Shown here one piece after another: positions 2,803 to 13,483 of a DNA stretch of 64,000 nt (positions are counted from its first letter, which is position 1; each line of letters begins with the position of its first letter). Both the position numbers and the translations under genes were made by a program. This stretch comes from Dictyostelium discoideum (taxonomy: Eukaryota). The stretch covers positions 2,240,001-2,304,000 of the forward strand of contig CM000154.2 of NCBI GenBank assembly GCA_000004695.1, read 5' to 3'. Below the pieces are notes generated by a model. The model ran no database searches, had not been told where the DNA came from, and saw only the letters and a program-made list of their open reading frames with translations.

Positions 2803-3746
2803 ATGTGCAAAGTGTGAGAAAGTGGGTTGTTATTGTTTTAATTGTTAAAAGGTTTAGTGCGAGTGTTTTTGTTCTTTTTTCTTTAATTTTAGTAGTAGCG
2901 GTAGTACTTTCTACCAAAATACGTTATTGTCGTATTCAAAATTGATGTTATTAACAAGTGGTCTAAAAAAAATTAAAAAAAAAAAAAAAGGTGCTTTAAC
3001 AAAAATTTGGATTTCTTTTTTTTTTTTCTATTTCCTTTTTTCTTTAAATTACAAAAAATTTAAAAAAAATAAAAAAAAAAAAAGTTATTTTTATTTTTTT
3101 TTTTTGTAATTTTATTTTTTTTTTAATTTTTTTTTTTTTTTTTTTTTTGATTGAAACGTCCTTTGGTATTAAAGTATTAAGAAACTAATTTTGATTAGAG
3201 TATTTCGTTTTTTTATTATTGCTTTTATTGCCTATTTGATATAGAAAAAAAAATAAAAAATAAAAATAAAAAAAATAAAAATAAAAAATAAATAAAATAA
3301 AAATAATTAAAAAATAAAAAAACTATTGTTATTGCCCCTAAAAAATAATATTTCTTGGATGTGATCTAATTTTTCAGATTTCGTGGTTAAGTAACCAAAA
3401 AAAAAAAAAAAAAAATTTACTTTTTTAAATTTTGGTTTTGTTTTTTTTTTTTTGGTATATTATGATAATTAAACAATAATTTAATCTAGATTATCTTTTT
3501 AAAATGAAGTGTTGTCATCCAATTTTTTTCTGTATATAAAATTATTTATTCTAAAATAAAAAAAAAAACAATGTCTTAAACCATTTTTTAAAATTTTTTT
3601 TAAAAAAAAAAAAAAAATAAAATAAAATAATATTAAATTTAAAAAAAAAAAAAAAACAAAACTTTTTTTATTGTATTTTCATTTTTTTTATAAGCACATT
3701 TGCCAATTTATGTGTATGTAAGTGAGGTGTGTGTATGTACGAATAA

Positions 3747-4502
3747 TCAGTTATTACTTGAAAAGATAACATCAGAAAGTGTAGCTAAACCAGACGTTGT
3801 TGGAACACTTCTTTCATCGTCTTCATTGGTTGTGTCATTTTTGATGATTTTCATTTCAGTATCAATTGATTGTGATTGTGATTGTGATTGTGGTTGTGAT
3901 GATGATGATAGATTTATGAATGATGATGATGAGGATGAACATGGTGTTGTAGTTGTGGAGGAGGACAAAGATGTTGATGGTGATTGGGTGTGTGGATTTA
4001 AAACCAAGGATATTCTTTCAATCTCTTTATTGATTTGAATAGAGATGATTTCTTTATCAGAAGTTAATGAATTCTCTTTAATAGTTTTTAAATTTTCAGT
4101 AATTTGTTTCAATTGTTCTTTAAGTTCTTTAATCTCTTTAACTTGATCATCATTATTATTATCTTTATTGTTTTTTGTGTTTACAGTTGACGATGATGAT
4201 GATGGATCATCAATTTCATCGATAATGGTTTCCATATTCGATAAAGGAGGTGTATTGGTATTACTACTATTGGATGATGATACTTCAGAGCTACCATTGG
4301 TTTGTTGTAGATGTTGAGATAAGGATGGTGTTGATGATAAGGATGATAAATTATTTAACAAATTTGTTGAGGATGAAGATGAAACTTTATGATTATTATT
4401 ATTATTATAATTATTATAATTATTATAATTATTATTATTATTATAATTATTATTATTATTATTATTATTTAAACCTCTTGGTGATGAAATGCCATTATGA
4501 TG

Positions 4503-4601
<99 letters not shown>

Positions 4602-6494
4602 ATTATTCATTCTTGGAGAAATAGGTGAATCCAAAGTGTTAGCATTTCCAATTAATGTATTTTGATTATTTGGTGAGAAAAATCCAGACATCATTGGGGT
4701 CATTGGAAGTGGTGGTATACTACCATTATTAATATTACTTTCAGTATGTGCTCTTTTTCTTTGACCAGTATGTCTTTGTTTATTATTGCCATTACCATTT
4801 GGTAATGATGATAACAAATTATTTGAAGAGAGTGAAGAAGTTTCTTTCATAATTTTTAATTGAGTTGTTAATTGATTAAAGTTTTCATGAATTTGTTTAT
4901 CGATTGAACTATGATACAAGATATTATTATTATTTGAGCTATTATTTAAACTATTATTAGTTGATGAAATTGGTGACGTTGTTAAAGAGTTAACATTACT
5001 ATTATTTGAGATATTTGGTAATTGTTGAGAAGGTGAATGAATACTATTATTTGAATTATTAAGTGAATGTGGTGTTGAAATTATATTAATTGGTGAAGTT
5101 GAAGTTGTTGTTGTGGTGGTTGTTGTTGTTGCTGTTGTTGTTGATGTTGTAGTATTATTATTATTATCATTAATTGGTGAATTAATTGGTGAAGAACCTA
5201 ATAATATTTCATCTTTTGAATCATCACTACTCATTTCTTCTTCAAGTGCAACACTTGTTAATTTTTTCATATTATCTTTAATTGGTGTGACATCAATAAT
5301 ATCTTTATCTTTATGATCTTTATGATCTTTATCCTTATGATCACGAGAAGTATTTGTAGAAGAAGATTTTGGAGAATGTAAAATATCACGTTGACTATAA
5401 CTATGAGTATCCTTTACAACACTTGATGAATCATTTTCGCTATAACTTCTTTTTCTTTTTGTAATGATTTTCTTTGCTTTAATTTCATCCCATGGATCAG
5501 AGATTTGTCTCATTCTCCAATAACCATTTTGTTTGTATTGTTCCATACCACTTTCAAATAAATTTTTACTATGACTTAACATATCTTGAATTTGTTTATG
5601 CCAATTATCCGATCTTTTCTTATCCAAACATAAAAGGTTCCAATGTGCAGTCATAAAACCATAAACATCAGTCTTTAAATTTAAAAATGGTTTTTGAGGC
5701 ATTTCCAATTGAAGACAAAAGAATACTATTTTCATTATGCATGCCCATGTTGGTGATTGACTATTTGCAAATGGACTACCACGTTTACAGAGAATACATT
5801 CTTTAAAAACGCATTGAACTGATGTTGATGGTGATGGCGATGACTCTTGATTACCTCCCATTGTTGGTGAATGAAGTCCAATTGGTAATCCCCATGTTGG
5901 TGATGAAATACTATTATTACTGTTATTATTACCATTACCACTTACACTACTACGTGGATAAACAGGAGTTGGTGGTGGAGGTGGTGGTGGTGATGATACA
6001 TTATTATTATTACTACTACTGTTGTTGCTGCTGCCGCTGCCGCTGCTGCTATCATTAAAATTACCATTTGAAATACACTCAAGTATTGATGAAGGCGAAG
6101 GAGGTTGGTGAGTTGGTATTGGTGAGGATGGTGTTGATGAGGAATTATTTTTCATTTCCAATAATATCTTATAAGAAAGTGAATCATGTTTTGGTGGTTT
6201 GGATATAGTTGGTGGTGATGTTGTTCTTGGTGATAATGTACCTGCTAATAAAGATGATGTGGAAGATGGACTACCACAAGTTAATTTCTTTATTGCTCCT
6301 TCTACATCTCTAACTGCGAGCATTAATGGGCTATTTGGTAATATTGCTGGTGTAGTTTTTGGTGTAGTTGTTATTATTGGTATTGGTGTAGAAGGTGTAG
6401 TTATTCCTGTTGTTGTTGTTTTTGTTGTTTTTGTTGTTGTTGTTGATATTATTGGATTTGTCTCTCCAGAAAATACTAAACTCTCCTTTAACAT
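3747..6494 (-). CDS. Asn/Thr/Ser-rich nuclear-type protein (915 aa) with a divergent forkhead-like winged-helix segment
   Basis: Single long minus ORF with ATG at 6492-6494. The forkhead-like segment is ...SPTWACIMKIVFFCLQLEMPQKPFLNLKTDVYGFMTAHWNLLCLDKKRSDNWHKQIQDMLSHSKNLFESGMEQYKQNGYWRMRQ.... It follows the forkhead pattern W-A..I....(L.L..IY.FM)....W.NSIRHNLS.SK.F.......G.YW.M, with IRHNLS diverged to IQDMLS. It is followed by a basic KRKR nuclear-localisation-like stretch. The rest is low complexity. Confidence 0.6.
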
Positions 6495-7764
6495 TTTTAA
6501 TTATATATGTATATATATATAAAATATGTTATTGAGTTGGTATTATTTGGGTTGAATTTTTTTTTTTTTTTTTTTTTTTTTTTGTTTTGTTTTGTCTTTG
6601 TTTCTGTTTTTGTTTTTGTTTTTGTGTGGCTATTTATTAATATGCTTCTCTATTTTTGAATTTTTTTTTTTTTTTTTTAAAAAAAAAAATATGATAAGTG
6701 ATCGGTTGTTTTTTTTTTTTTTTTTCTTATTATTTTAAAAAAAAAAAATTATATACAATGAATAAAAAAATGAATAAAAAAAATAAAAAAAATTAAAAAA
6801 TATGTTGGGGTTTTTTTTTTTTTTTTTTTATTTTTTATTATTATAATTATTATTATTATTTAAAAATAGAAAAAGAAAAAAAAATGAAAATGAAAATGAA
6901 AATGAAAATAAAAATAAAAAATAAAAATAGATTTTAAAATTAATTAAAAAAAATGAAAATAAAAAAAAAAAAAAAAGTGAAAATGGGAAAATGAAAAAAA
7001 AAAAAAAAATATATATATATATTAAATTGTTTTTATAAATATTTATAAAAACAATTGAGAGGATCTAGATGAAGTTAATAGTATAGGATTATTTAAACAA
7101 GGGACTACTTTTTTTTTGTGATGTAAATGTGATTATTATTTTTATTACTGTTATTATTATTTATTATTTTTGGTGTGGTGTGGATGATTTTTGGCTTTTT
7201 TTTTGTTTTTTTTTTTTTTTTTTGGGTTTTTTTTTTATTTTTTGTGATAATATAAAAAAAAAAAAATTAAATTAGAAAAAAAGAAAAAAATTAAAAAAAT
7301 TAAATAATAATAATATAATTATTTTTTATATATACAAGGATTATTATTATTTTAATTGGTGCCAAATTATTATTTAATCGAACGTTTTTTTTCTTTTTTT
7401 TTCTTTTTTTTTTTTTCTATTTTTTTTTATCTATGTTAATCTGTAAAAAAAATAAAAAATAAATAAAGAAAAAAAAAAGTTTTTTATTTATTATCAAGTT
7501 GATGAAATGACGAACGAAAAAAACAGAACGAACGAATGTAATATGTATTAATTTTGTGTGTTTTTGTTTTTGGTGTTTTTATTGGTTATTTTTTTTTAAA
7601 AAAAGATTTATTAGGTGTGTCGGATATAAAACTTTGTGAGGTGAGTGTTTTAGTTATTGTGTGTTGGTTGTTGTAGTTGAAAAAAGTAGTATTATATTTA
7701 AATAATATTTTAAAGAAATTGAATTCTGTGCCCTATAATAATTAATTTTCAGATAGAATAACTA

Positions 7765-10571: not shown

Positions 10572-11309
10572 ATGTCAAGTGAAAATCTTCCACCAGATGT
10601 TATTAAAAGAGTAGTTAAAGAATTAAAAGAATTAAATTCGTCAACATTAGAAGGTATTACATTATTACCATGCGAAGAAGATATAACAAATATTGAAGCA
10701 GTAGTTACAGGACCAGCAGGAACACCATATGAAGGTGGTTATTTTAAAGCAAGATTAATTCTCTCTTCCGATTTCCCAAGATCACCACCAAAAGCAAACT
10801 TTATCACTAAAATATTTCATCCAAATGTTTCAAAAAAAGGTGAAATTTGTGTAAACACTTTAAAAAAAGATTGGACTGAAGATTTAGGTTTAAAACATAT
10901 TCTATTGGTAATGTATTATTTAATTTAATAATAATGAAAAAAAAAAAAAACTATTATTAATATTTTATTTATTATTTTTATTATTAAATATATATAGACA
11001 ATTAAGTGTTTATTAATTGTACCAAATGCTGAATCATCTTTAAACGAAGATGCATCAAGATTACTTTTAGAAAATTATGATGATTATTGTAAACATGCCA
11101 AATTATTTACATCAATTCATGCATCAAAACCAATCATTGATAGTAACAATAATAATGAAAATTCAACAACCACACCAACAACAACTACAACAGCAACTAC
11201 ACCATCAACAAACACAGCTTCTATTTCATCACCAGTTAAAAAGAAAACTGAAACTACAAATTCAACAACCACAAAAGTACAACCAAAGAAAAGTTTAAAA
11301 AGATTATAG
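10572..11309 (+). CDS. ube2s: Ubiquitin-conjugating enzyme E2 S (UBE2S family), 2 exons: 10572..10907 and 10998..11309, ~215 aa
   Basis: UBC fold with the HPN motif (FHPNV) and active-site Cys ([12 protein letters not shown]). After a GTAATG...TAG intron the frame continues [42 protein letters not shown], close to human UBE2S [43 protein letters not shown]. The C-terminal Lys/Thr-rich tail is typical of E2-S. Exon lengths are 336 and 312 nt, both in frame. Confidence 0.85.
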
Positions 11310-11613
11310 AGTGAATCATAATCATAACAACTTCAACATACTCTTTTAAGCATGTAACATAACAATTTAAAAAAAAAAAAAAAAAAAAAATGCACTCATT
11401 CATCACACAGAGAGAATATCGCTATGTTTGTTCAAGGTGTATTTTAAAAATTTAATAAAAAAAAAAAAAAAAAAAAACCAAAAAAAAAAAAAAAAAAAAA
11501 TAATTCCCAACACCTTCTCCTTTTTTTCTTTTTTTTTTTATTAACCAAAACAGTTTTATTTTTACACTTCAACCATTCAAGTTTTAAAAAAAAAAAATAA
11601 AAAAAAAAATAGA

Positions 11614-12834
11614 ATGATTTTAAACTATAACTATTTTAGAATTGAAAATAATAATAATAATAATAATAAATTTGAAGATTTAAATAAATTATTTTTTAAA
11701 ATATGGAGAAATTTAATAATTAGGAATGAAATTTTAGAAAATGTTAGAAAATTTAAAAGATTTGAAAAATTACCAAAGATATGTGTTAGTTCTTATTATA
11801 TAGAGAATGAAAATAGATATTTTTATAAAAGAGTATTAATTAATGGTAGCAGTAAAAAGGAAATAATTGAGAAATTATCATATCTACCTCATACAGTTGA
11901 AGAATTAACAATTGAATATAAAAGTATTGAAGACCTACCAACCTCAAAAATATCAAATACTACCTACTTCATTCCACCATTTATAACAACATTAATATTT
12001 GAAAATTCAATTCAAGATTCAAAGATTGCATTTAATTTCATACCACCAACCATTAAAAAATTAATATTACCAATATATTTTAATCAACCCTTAAGAAATA
12101 CAATTAATGAATCAATTTTCCCAATGAATTCAAGTTTAGAATCAATTGATTTCGGTGAGAGTTTTAATAAAAATCTATATGATTTACCAAAATCTTTAAA
12201 ACAAATTAAATTGTCAAAAGATTTCAACTTAAAATTAAATAAAAATTCAATACCAAAGAATGTAAAAGAAATTGAATTTGGTAGCAAATATTCAAAATTA
12301 ATAGCAAATAATGTGCTACCACCATGTGCAATTGTAAAAAAAGCGTATACAATTAATTACAGAATTCAGATTTATAAGGCCTATGAAAAAGTATTCATCC
12401 CGAATTGGACAAAATCTTTAATACTTGGTCCAAGATGTAATGTTGACCTTTTACCAAACTTGTACAATTTAAAAATTAATTACCTATCATTGAATTGTAA
12501 AGGGTATTCTGATCTATCAAATATTTCAAAATGTAATTCAATTAGGTATATTAAATTTGGTGAAAATTTCTCACAATCAATTTCAATCAATGATTTACCT
12601 CCAAAGTTAGTTTCATTATACTTTTCAAAATCATTTTACCAAACAATTACAAAATCAATGTTACCAAAAAATTTAAATTTTTTATATTTAAAATCTGATA
12701 ACATCGATATTGAATTCCCATTAAATATGAAATATTTAGCAATATTTATTTCAAAAAATAATAAATATATTATTAATAAAATTAATGAAGATCCAAATAT
12801 AATTAAAGAAAATAAAATTCATATAGTTTTATAA
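11614..12834 (+). CDS. FNIP-repeat-containing protein (406 aa)
   Basis: Repeated ~22-aa units of the Dictyostelium FNIP repeat type (e.g. YFNQPL..IPKNVKEIEFG, FGESFNKNLYDLPKSLKQIKL, FGENFSQSISINDLPPKLVSLYFS). Single exon with an ATG start. Confidence 0.75.
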   Translation: MILNYNYFRIENNNNNNNKFEDLNKLFFKIWRNLIIRNEILENVRKFKRFEKLPKICVSSYYIENENRYFYKRVLINGSSKKEIIEKLSYLPHTVEELTIEYKSIEDLPTSKISNTTYFIPPFITTLIFENSIQDSKIAFNFIPPTIKKLILPIYFNQPLRNTINESIFPMNSSLESIDFGESFNKNLYDLPKSLKQIKLSKDFNLKLNKNSIPKNVKEIEFGSKYSKLIANNVLPPCAIVKKAYTINYRIQIYKAYEKVFIPNWTKSLILGPRCNVDLLPNLYNLKINYLSLNCKGYSDLSNISKCNSIRYIKFGENFSQSISINDLPPKLVSLYFSKSFYQTITKSMLPKNLNFLYLKSDNIDIEFPLNMKYLAIFISKNNKYIINKINEDPNIIKENKIHIVL

Positions 12835-12901
12835 TAAAACTAATAATAAATAATAATTTTTGTTAGTTTTTTTTTTTTGTTTAAAAAAATTACTTTTTTA
12901 T

Positions 12902-13483
12902 TTAGTTTTCAGCGGTTTGTTGAGTGAATTCAAAGACAACTTCTTTACCAGTTAATTTGTGGTAGACAGCAGAGAAGGAGTCAACTTTAGAGATGTTTGA
13001 TAACATTTCTTTACGATCTAAGTAGATTTTGTGGAGTTTTGAACCATCTAATCTGTATCTTAAACGACGACCAACAATAGTGTTTGGGAATACTAAATCA
13101 TCGAGAATAGCATCGTGGACAGCTTTAATGGTACGGGAGATTGGTCTCTTTTGCATTTTAATCTTGTTGTTTGAGGCTGGCTTACGGATGATACGTCTTT
13201 GGGCAATGAACATAACTTGTTTACCACCGAGTTTCTTTTCAACTTCATAGGTTAATTTTTGTTGGATTTTGTTGTAGTTTTTGAGTTGACGGAATGGAAC
13301 AAAGATGACAACAGCTTTTTTGGATTCAGCAACATCGACTTCCTTGACTGAACAGACTGATAAATCTTTTAAGTCTTTTAATTCGGCGTTGTTGTTTTCC
13401 AAATCAACTAATGCTTGGGCAACAGTGTTTTCGAATTCAGTGGCAACTTTACCAGCTGGTTTGATGATTTTCTTGTTAAGCAT
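12902..13483 (-). CDS. rps7: 40S ribosomal protein S7e (193 aa)
   Basis: Full-length collinear match to eukaryotic RPS7 (..IIFVPFRQLKNYNKIQQKLTYEVEKKLGGKQVMFIAQRRII.., ..RTIKAVHDAILDDLVFPNTIVGRRLRYRLDGSKL.., YHKLTGKEVVFEF). High-expression codon usage. Confidence 0.9.
   Translation of the reverse strand: MLNKKIIKPAGKVATEFENTVAQALVDLENNNAELKDLKDLSVCSVKEVDVAESKKAVVIFVPFRQLKNYNKIQQKLTYEVEKKLGGKQVMFIAQRRIIRKPASNNKIKMQKRPISRTIKAVHDAILDDLVFPNTIVGRRLRYRLDGSKLHKIYLDRKEMLSNISKVDSFSAVYHKLTGKEVVFEFTQQTAEN

Follow-up and report, generated by a model that had tools for sequence, protein, structure and literature searches.

A forkhead-like winged helix of the Polycomb-like/ASH2L class in a largely low-complexity protein of Dictyostelium discoideum

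The gene and its protein

The window analyzed here, a stretch of 64,000 nucleotides of the Dictyostelium discoideum genome (GCA_000004695.1, contig CM000154.2), carries at positions 3747..6494 of the minus strand a single-exon gene that was identified in the list of open reading frames as an ATG-to-stop ORF of 915 amino acids. This reading frame, from which the initial annotation started, is real: a gene-position look-up in the public assembly GCA_054883475.1 found one gene called, with a product identical to the 915-aa protein. Two sister assemblies possess syntenic and intact orthologues of 945 aa. An exact-sequence look-up of the protein in the sequence-cluster collection returned no entry. 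The plus-strand ORFs within 3747-6494 were rejected as antisense artefacts of repeats, and identification with CRTF or another characterized Dictyostelium factor was found to be unsupported, no relevant paper having come up in the literature search.

The protein is mostly of low complexity (S 18%, N 16%, T 10%, P 7%) and includes a poly-Asn tract of 32 consecutive residues (aa 633-664, 4503..4598, minus strand); most of the indels between the sister assemblies fall into the low-complexity regions beside this tract. A Pfam search of the 915 residues yielded only ASH2L-like_WH, below threshold, and DUF1993 (E=0.35), which is spurious. Selection acts very differently along the chain: dN/dS is 0.05-0.06 in the domain at aa 224-342, compared with 0.42-0.49 over the remaining protein, so that the domain is under strong purifying selection and the rest evolves fast.

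Dictyostelid orthologues align with the protein at both the N and C termini, and several short segments (all on the minus strand) stand out. The orthologue alignment defined an N-terminal linear motif at aa 102-143 (6066..6191), K-D-x-(F/L)-S-x-(K/Q)-ILL-x-MKN ... SSP-x-P ... P-x-SPS, and a conserved C-terminal tail, VP(T/S)...GL(A/S)(T/A)LS (3750..3809). A mid-protein motif, SIDKQIHENFNQLTTQLK (aa 530-547, 4854..4907), is conserved, with a close match in the MAFFT alignment to the Tieghemostelium orthologue P0004; by eye, P0003 was seen to contain a comparable string, offset from the alignment, and P0002 a weak one. The segment aa 787-832 (3999..4136), EIKELKEQLKQITENLKTIKEN...INKEIERISLVL, shows a 3-4-3-4 spacing of I and L with one heptad register clearly the best; the block is conserved in the orthologues and 98% identical in the sister assemblies. 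Given this spacing and conservation, it probably forms a coiled coil.

The KRKR patch that had been described as following the domain is present at aa 346-349 and forms part of the nuclear localization-like sequence T-K-R-K-R-S (aa 345-350, 5445..5462), which all four dictyostelid orthologues have in the form (T/S)KRKRSYSE. In 48% of the homologues, a basic cluster follows the domain within 35 aa, as compared with 10% of control windows, a 4.6-fold enrichment. The patch contains an RxRxxS motif of the PKB/Akt type; as a family feature this was rejected, since only 5 of 150 homologues have it.

A winged helix preceded by a cysteine knuckle

The conserved globular domain spans aa 224-342 (5469..5825, minus strand) and combines a cysteine knuckle with a winged helix. 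An AlphaFold2 (AF2) model that was built with an alignment of 84 family sequences (A1) reached a pLDDT of 90.8 and a pTM of 0.84, and has the topology H1-S1-H2-H3-S2-W1-S3 (model residues H27-41, E48-49, H50-60, H75-85, E90-92, and E102-105). The predicted structure thus shows this region as a canonical winged helix, the fold for which the initial annotation had proposed structure prediction as a test. Modeling without the alignment resulted in a beta-rich topology with a pLDDT of 53, which was wrong and was discarded.

According to DSSP on the AF2 model, helix 1 comprises aa 250-264, WACIMKIVFFCLQLE (5703..5747, minus strand), and begins with W250, which is kept in 99% of the A1 members. Strand 1 (aa 271-272) precedes helix 2 (aa 273-283, LKTDVYGFMTA; 5646..5678, minus strand), which hhalign pairs with the forkhead sequence LTLSQIYEWMV. 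The putative recognition helix, helix 3, is WHKQIQDMLSH (aa 298-308; 5571..5603, minus strand). Its family signature, W-x-K-Q-x-Q-D-x-L-S-H, is paired by hhalign with forkhead W-K-N-S-I-R-H-N-L-S-L, and its conservation in A1 is high (W298 96%, K300 85%, D304 87%, L306 94%, S307 85%, H308 94%). The hairpin of strand 2, wing 1, and strand 3 covers aa 313-328, FESGMEQYKQNGYWRM (5511..5558, minus strand), of which F313, G316, G324, and W326 are each conserved in at least 94% of A1.

Ahead of helix 1 there is only a C-x4-C-x2-C sequence, formed by C228, C233, and C236 (5787..5813, minus strand), and no complete PHD finger. C233 and C236 are invariant in A1, C228 is conserved to 94%, and His284 (5643..5645, minus strand) occurs in 84 of 84 family members. 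The signature C-x4-C-x2-C...H is a probable zinc knuckle, with the three cysteines as proposed ligands. From its invariance and the absence of an equivalent in the Polycomb-like (PCL) proteins and ASH2L, we infer that His284 supplies the fourth; His308 could do so in its place. C233 and C236 pair with the final CxxC in PHD2 of PHF1, MTF2, and Pcl and with that of the ASH2L PHD finger. Opposite His284, PHF1 and MTF2 carry Asn, Pcl carries Gln, and ASH2L carries Tyr; ASH2L also lacks a Cys opposite C228. Two additional ligand-type residues are thus found exactly where PHD ligands are missing. The PHD finger that precedes the winged helix in PCL proteins and ASH2L would be absent here, with one zinc site (Cys228, Cys233, Cys236, and His284) remaining and stapling the N-terminal arm to the winged helix. 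Such an apparent exchange of a PHD finger for a minimal CCCH knuckle would represent a structural variant of the PHD-plus-winged-helix module.

Relationship to Polycomb-like, ASH2L, and forkhead domains

In a phmmer search of the PDB, the single domain sequence returned weak matches only, a spurious one to AidB (0.08) and one to PHF1 (0.31), which proved to be the true lead. The 84-sequence profile, searched with hmmsearch against all PDB sequences, retrieved MTF2 (E=1.4e-9), PHF1 (9.8e-9), Pcl (3.3e-8), ASH2L (3e-6), FOXM1 (1.6e-4), and FOXN1 (1.2e-3); apart from PCL, ASH2L, and FOX, the search brought up no family of winged helices. Profile-profile comparison with hhalign gave the same ranking for PCL (98.1%, P=7e-14, 99 columns) and FOX (94.0%, P=1.5e-7, 59 columns), and a probability of 89% for ASH2L; the ASH2L sequence used matches 3RSN at 100%. 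The domain resembles the PCL winged helix in both sequence and structure, and the model superposes on the N-terminal domain of ASH2L; its closest structural neighbors are not FOX domains.

In Pfam, the protein scores 19.5-19.7 bits against PF21198 (ASH2L-like_WH; E about 1e-3), below the gathering score of 25 bits, and fragments of PHF1 and MTF2 from PDB alignments are likewise sub-threshold, at a similar level (18.9 and 17.9 bits). ASH2L-like_WH was matched by 75 of the 84 family members, and the paralogues P0125, P0136, and P0050 exceed the gathering score, so that the wider amoebozoan family overlaps PF21198. For the forkhead family PF00250 (gathering score 27 bits), the HMMER search that had been suggested as a check, run up to E<=10, matched neither the full-length protein nor its domain; nine of the 84 relatives touched it at E<=1, all below threshold, with a best E of 1.6e-4.

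The domain therefore shares homology with the winged helices of PHF1, MTF2, Pcl, and ASH2L, forkhead being a more distant relative. Since PCL and ASH2L score better than FOX in the PDB search, it belongs to the PCL/ASH2L class of forkhead-like winged helices, and is not a FOX protein. The ASH2L domain itself was described as "forkhead-like" (Sarvan 2011, cited in PMC5870349), so that the term "forkhead-like winged helix" is fair for the fold class and "cryptic FOX" is not. Of the cryptic FOX-like fold that the initial annotation had envisaged, the winged helix and the homology to forkhead are retained, and the FOX membership is not. The forkhead resemblance is well above chance for the family profile, exceeding the 50% probability below which the forkhead proposal was to be abandoned, but is not significant for the single sequence (hhalign against 10 FOX domains, 2.4%, P=0.02). 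A clearly better match does exist, to the winged helix of another family (E of 1e-9 to 3e-6 for PCL/ASH2L versus 1.6e-4 for the best FOX).

All the motifs on which the forkhead proposal was based are present: TWACIMKIVFF within aa 249-263, FLNLKTDVYGFMTAHW at about aa 270-285, DNWHKQIQDMLSHSKNLFE at about aa 296-314, and GYWRM at aa 324-328. Three of the four proposed pairings with forkhead, those of helices 2 and 3 and of strand 3, are exact; the pairing does not hold for helix 1, which hhalign leaves out against forkhead and which HMMER against FOXJ1 places about 5 residues off the proposed register. The forkhead segment had been located at 5630-5900. This range overlaps the domain but corresponds to aa 199-288, with only the cysteine knuckle and helices 1-2; since the domain spans 5469-5825, it captures the first half only, and helix 3 and the wing (5511-5603) lie outside it. 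The divergence of the recognition helix from NSIRHNLS to KQIQDMLS was correctly recognized and is seen in hhalign as well.

An amoebozoan family

The word-indexed homologue search found 1 match from the sequence and 4 from the alignment, and an exhaustive representative search was needed: using phmmer with the single sequence, this identified at least 351 clusters of sequences, and 47 of these reached E<=1e-30. Members with a named source belong to Dictyostelia, Ceratiomyxa, Clastostelium, Mastigamoeba, Entamoeba, and Arcella, so that the members that can be traced span the Amoebozoa. All but one of the members traced to named records are annotated as hypothetical or uncharacterized, and no description of the family was found in the literature search. 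Some paralogues have a homeodomain fused to the winged helix.

The family signature is C-x4-C-x2-C ... W ... H-W ... W-x-K-Q-x-Q-D-x-L-S-H ... F-x-S-G ... G-(Y/F)-W-x-L ... D-P-W, every residue of which is present in the 915-aa protein. Its score against the A1 HMM (151.7 bits, E=2.8e-48) is partly circular because A1 includes this protein; independent evidence comes from the single-sequence phmmer search and from the completeness of the signature in the protein. The statement that forkhead proteins are rare or absent in amoebozoan annotations is supported, for Dictyostelia, by a published inventory, which lists FKH/Fox among the transcription factor families not found in Dictyostelia (PMC6873476). 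Dictyostelids and other Amoebozoa nonetheless have a sizeable family of forkhead-like winged helices.

Proposed function

With a probability of roughly 0.6, the gene encodes a nuclear regulatory protein whose sole folded module is the winged helix of about 115 residues of the PCL/ASH2L ("forkhead-like") class. Its most likely function is that of a nuclear, dimeric DNA-binding regulator. DNA binding is proposed because the homologous PCL and ASH2L domains bind DNA (PMC9122586, PMC5870349), the domain carries a net basic charge (17 K+R versus 11 D+E, pI about 9.1), the basic patch is enriched, and homeodomain fusions exist. Helix 3, whose W-x-KQ-x-QD-x-LSH forms the most conserved polar surface of the family, would be placed in the major groove, and wing 1 and the KRKR patch may touch the DNA backbone, the latter doubling as a nuclear localization signal. 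The C-terminal heptad-repeat helix would dimerize the protein, so that we propose that two winged helices read a bipartite site, and the poly-N, S, and T linkers together with the short conserved motifs may recruit partners. The DNA target is expected to be distinct from those of forkhead and PCL, given that the forkhead residues N/R/H are replaced by K/Q/D and the PCL wing sequence KKRK by YKQN.

Several observations count against this model. A conserved Asp such as D304 in helix 3 is unusual on a DNA-contacting face. The wing retains one of the four basic residues of PCL. Furthermore, the PCL/ASH2L domain acts within histone methyltransferase complexes and not as an autonomous transcription factor. 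In addition, the PCL winged helices use the wing, and not helix 3, for DNA binding, with two wing Lys residues reading CpG (PMC9122586), so that the binding mode is not confidently transferable.

Alternative readings

The protein might instead be an accessory subunit that, like the PCL proteins and ASH2L, uses a low-specificity affinity for DNA or nucleosomes to tether or stabilize a histone-modifying complex, for example Set1/COMPASS. We regard this as unlikely, although its closest relatives by sequence and structure both act in this way, and long disordered regions, short conserved motifs, and a coiled coil would suit a scaffold or adaptor. The PCL proteins (PHF1, MTF2, PHF19, and Drosophila Pcl; PDB 5XFP/5XFQ/5XFR/5OQD), whose winged-helix or extended homology domain is a close relative, have the architecture Tudor-PHD1-PHD2-WH-chromo-like; as judged by Pfam, the 915-aa protein lacks the Tudor, PHD1, full PHD2, and chromo-like modules. 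Similarly, ASH2L has a PHD finger and a C-terminal SPRY domain, neither of which was detected by Pfam in the 915 aa; without a complete PHD finger and SPRY, the protein is not an Ash2 orthologue. The partner modules are thus missing, and Pfam shows no further credible domain in the protein. PCL wings read CpG via KKRK (PHF1) or KKKK, whereas YKQN keeps a single Lys, and PCL proteins do not have the helix 3 signature of the amoeba family, the polar face of which is highly conserved. The many sequence clusters and the homeodomain fusions are more typical of transcription factor families than of single-copy complex subunits. No link to PRC2 is known or implied for the protein.

It is rather improbable that the winged helix serves as a protein-protein interaction or structural module that does not bind nucleic acids, as in cullins, ESCRT-II, and Scc1. 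The three clearly closest structures are DNA binders, the domain is positively charged overall and flanked by a basic patch, and it is similar to forkhead helix 3 at the profile level.

There is very little probability that the protein is a divergent true FOX member, in which case it would be a FOX transcription factor of Amoebozoa with helix 3 binding to sites of the forkhead type (consensus RYAAAYA). The profile-profile match with its expected register in helix 2, helix 3, and strand 3, the significance of FOXM1 and FOXN1 in the PDB search, the members that touch PF00250, and the basic patch, which FOX proteins have as well, would agree with it. Forkhead domains have the same winged-helix topology and share with the amoeba domain the helix 2 motif (I/V)Y-x-(F/W), the helix 3 motif W-x-(K/N)-x-I-x-x-x-L-S, and the strand 3 motif aromatic-W-x-L; in both, the domain is followed by a basic patch. 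However, of the forkhead helix 3, N-S-(I/V)-R-H-(N/S)-L-S, only I, L, and S are kept in K-Q-I-Q-D-M-L-S, the base-contacting Asn/Arg/His being K/Q/D, and the forkhead KPPYSY start is missing.

A chance alignment within a low-complexity protein can be dismissed for practical purposes: the single sequence gives sub-threshold matches only and AF2 fails without the alignment, but the idea is refuted by the 351 homologues, the high-confidence model, and the strong purifying selection, and the domain region is not of low complexity.

Implications

If DNA binding by these proteins is specific, the family constitutes an overlooked group of regulators in Dictyostelium and Entamoeba. A bolder and quite speculative idea, to which we assign a low probability, is that this large amoebozoan family, including Entamoeba and the homeodomain-fused paralogues, consists of sequence-specific transcription factors and is the closest relative of forkhead outside the opisthokonts, intermediate between PCL/ASH2L and FOX. 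It was suggested by the fact that the family profile reaches both PCL/ASH2L and FOX, while the small PCL profile misses FOX (hhalign, no match, 0.5%); as this PCL profile comprises only 3 sequences, the latter is weak evidence for a bridging position. The profile link to both PCL/ASH2L and forkhead provides a concrete handle on the origin of the opisthokont forkhead domain.

Classification of the winged-helix domain

As stated in the initial annotation, 3747-6494 encodes a 915-aa protein; in the ORF list of the window it is a single ORF on the minus strand, and every string quoted in the annotation was found in the protein. The segment proposed to resemble a forkhead, 5630-5900, translates to aa 199-288 and covers only the first half of the domain; by translation of the ORF the whole domain spans aa 224-342 (5469-5825, minus strand), and helix 3 and the wing (5511-5603, minus strand) lie outside the proposed segment.

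A Pfam search of the single sequence gave no match to Forkhead (PF00250), and the sole winged-helix match was to ASH2L-like_WH (PF21198), at 19.5 bits, below the cut-off of 25. Alignment of the single sequence with ten FOX domains using hhalign (10 of 10 matching PF00250) returned 2.4% (P=0.02); at this level the forkhead resemblance is no more than chance. An exhaustive phmmer scan with the domain identified 351 homologues at E<=1e-3, 151 at E<=1e-10 and 47 at E<=1e-30, of which 84, de-duplicated at 75% identity, form the family alignment A1. Searched against all PDB sequences, the A1 profile matched MTF2 (E 1.4e-9), PHF1 (9.8e-9), Drosophila Pcl (3.3e-8), ASH2L (3e-6), FOXM1 (1.6e-4) and FOXN1 (1.2e-3), followed by a dozen further FOX chains at E 0.07-0.5; two noise matches aside, no winged-helix family besides Polycomb-like (PCL), ASH2L and FOX was retrieved. 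In hhalign, A1 aligned with three PCL sequences at 98.1% (P=7e-14, 99 columns), with FOX at 94.0% (P=1.5e-7) and with ASH2L (a sequence 100% identical to 3RSN) at 89%. The FOX alignment pairs PFLNLKTDVYGFMTAHW with KRLTLSQIYEWMVKSVPYF, DNWHKQIQDMLSHSK with AGWKNSIRHNLSLHS, and NGYWRM with SSWWML, so that three of the four forkhead pairings initially proposed were recovered in the same register; the helix 1 block was not, being omitted by hhalign and displaced by about 5 residues by HMMER. Among the A1 members, 75 of 84 touched ASH2L-like_WH and 9 of 84 Forkhead. Three amoebozoan relatives exceed the ASH2L-like_WH cut-off, and winged-helix fragments of PHF1 and MTF2, taken from PDB alignments, score 18.9 and 17.9 bits, on par with the 915-aa protein.

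Structure prediction bore out the suspected fold: AlphaFold2 with A1 gave the canonical order H1-S1-H2-H3-S2-wing-S3 (pLDDT 90.8, pTM 0.84), and the model obtained without an alignment was unusable. Foldseek against the PDB ranked fourteen Pcl/PHF1/MTF2 chains first, then FOXM1 and ASH2L, and then many FOX domains. Structural comparison of the model scored Pcl (13.4), MTF2 (12.9), ASH2L (11.0), Cdc6 (8.6), histone H5 (8.1), and FOXP4 and FOXN1 (7.9), with 101-104 aligned residues for the top three. Because of these Foldseek, structural, hhalign and Pfam comparisons, the domain is assigned to the PCL/ASH2L class of winged helices; its link to forkhead is real but more distant. At the level of the superfamily, the term "forkhead-like" can be defended, and according to a passage in PMC5870349 it was also used for the ASH2L domain in the original publication, but the proper assignment is a PHD-less, CCCH-knuckle variant of the PCL/ASH2L-type winged helix. 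Since the A1 profile reaches both PCL/ASH2L and FOX, and a three-sequence PCL profile of low power had no match to FOX, the family may conceivably sit near the root of forkhead.

Family-specific features and distribution

The part alignable with PCL and ASH2L opens with the final CxxC of the PHD finger that precedes the winged helix in those proteins. Ahead of this point, the 915-aa protein has only low-complexity sequence and nothing PHD-like. Every A1 member carries C233, C236 and H284, and 94% carry C228; opposite H284, PHF1 and MTF2 have Asn, Pcl has Gln and ASH2L has Tyr, and ASH2L is without a Cys at the C228 position. Judged from this conservation, C228, C233, C236 and H284 would form a single zinc site in place of the PHD finger, with His308 as an alternative candidate for the fourth ligand. 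The most conserved polar residues of the family sit in helix 3 (W298-x-K300-Q-x-Q-D304-x-L-S-H308). The divergence of the recognition helix noted initially was confirmed in the A1/FOX alignment, in which the base-contacting N, R and H of forkhead correspond to K, Q and D. PHF1 recognises CpG through a KKRK wing (PMC9122586); the corresponding wing of the 915-aa protein is YKQN.

Judged from the 20 of 351 homologues that were traced taxonomically, the Cys-knuckle winged-helix proteins are an uncharacterised family spread across Amoebozoa, and they may also occur beyond it. The traced members come from Dictyostelia (Cavenderia, Tieghemostelium, Synstelium, Heterostelium and Acytostelium), from Ceratiomyxa, Clastostelium, Mastigamoeba and Arcella, and from Entamoeba (E. 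histolytica EHI_159900, E. dispar, E. nuttalli and E. marina). All are named hypothetical or uncharacterised except one Heterostelium album protein (XP_020428190.1), labelled "histidine kinase" in NCBI and UniRef; this is probably a mis-annotation, because its Pfam search revealed neither a kinase nor a HATPase domain and only a weak winged-helix match. A published inventory (PMC6873476) counts FKH/Fox as one of the transcription-factor families not found in Dictyostelia, and our literature searches found no description of an amoebozoan Cys-knuckle winged-helix family. Five paralogues (P0125, P0129, P0135, P0136 and P0148; for example, Acytostelium subglobosum XP_012748374.1) combine the Cys-knuckle winged helix, at 26-28 bits for ASH2L-like_WH, with a C-terminal homeodomain (PF00046), and no description of this two-DNA-binding-domain architecture was found in the papers searched.

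Conservation and selection along the protein

Among the orthologues aligned (Cavenderia DFA_09030, Tieghemostelium DLAC_11221 and Synstelium), the winged helix is about 90% identical, and conservation extends to a motif near the N-terminus (aa 102-143), to the heptad-repeat helix of the C-terminal part (aa 787-832) and to the C-terminal tail; a mid-protein motif (aa 530-547) has a clear match in Tieghemostelium only. For the syntenic 945-aa orthologues in two sister assemblies (~87-90% DNA identity), dN/dS is 0.05-0.06 for the domain, from small counts of 2 nonsynonymous and 6-7 synonymous differences, and 0.42-0.49 for the remainder of the gene.

The domain is basic (pI 9.1), and a basic cluster follows within 35 residues in 48% of homologues versus 10% of control windows. 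The KRKR patch initially reported there is kept in dictyostelid orthologues as (T/S)KRKRSYSE, immediately behind the domain. This NLS-like patch, TKRKRSYS (aa 345-352, 5439-5462, minus strand), holds R347-x-R349-x-x-S352, a PKB/Akt-type RxRxxS consensus present in all four dictyostelid orthologues but in only 5 of 150 homologues. In FOXO an Akt site follows the winged helix, and the RxRxxS after the domain resembles it. QRKR forms another short basic patch, in a disordered region (RHTGQRKRAH, aa 574-583, 4746-4775, minus strand); it is roughly kept as KKK/LKK in orthologues and is possibly a second NLS.

Proposed role

The best reading of the protein is a nuclear regulator that would bind DNA via a zinc-stapled winged helix. 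Helix 3 would occupy the major groove and the backbone would be touched by the wing and by the KRKR patch, which would also act as nuclear localisation signal. The heptad-repeat helix, a probable coiled coil at the C-terminus, may mediate dimerisation, and the disordered regions and short motifs may bring in partners. An accessory subunit of a chromatin complex, in the manner of PCL and ASH2L, would agree with the class of the domain but is unlikely, as every partner-binding module is absent. Somewhat less probable still is a winged helix that does not bind DNA. Membership of the true FOX family is very improbable: the HMM, recognition-helix and nearest-neighbour tests all fail, notwithstanding the A1/FOX alignment. 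Chance similarity is refuted by the phmmer homologues, the AlphaFold2 model and dN/dS.

Gene structure and genomic setting

The gene is intronless in the window. In the orthologue of another dictyostelid, on a Logan SRR30000131 contig (L001:2779-3764), two or more introns interrupt the part that encodes the winged helix, with exon pieces at ~2779-2856, 3319-3447 and 3552-3710; the sequence of protein P0001 results from a miscall in which an intron was read through. GC content is 22-35% within the gene and 12-14% in the very AT-rich flanks. Ser (18%), Asn (16%) and Thr (10%) abound in the protein, which has one run of 32 Asn. Positions 2856-23535 are 99.1% identical over 20.6 kb (104 gap positions) to GCA_054883475.1 CM142511.1, where exactly the same 915-aa product is called, with no Pfam match recorded for it; the window thus stems from a closely related but distinct strain or assembly. 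Three further assemblies (among loci L007, L008 and L010) are syntenic and ~87-90% identical; their versions of the gene have 945 aa, or 894 aa by a gene call that extends past the end of the locus retrieved, and the length differences lie in low-complexity tracts.

Plus-strand ORFs of 67-116 aa in the region 3700-6522 (3700-4038, 4250-4600, 5113-5316, 5822-6058 and 6199-6522) are not genes, because their poly-Tyr, poly-Val and Cys/Asp repeats are the antisense of the gene's low-complexity codon repeats. Neighbours are a ubiquitin-conjugating E2 (UQ_con; approximate position within 10578-13483, mapped from locus L009), a 406-aa FNIP-repeat ORF (11614-12834, plus strand) and ribosomal protein S7e (12902-13483, minus strand). 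The S7e protein has the same sequence in four assemblies; nothing connects the three neighbours in function with the winged-helix gene.
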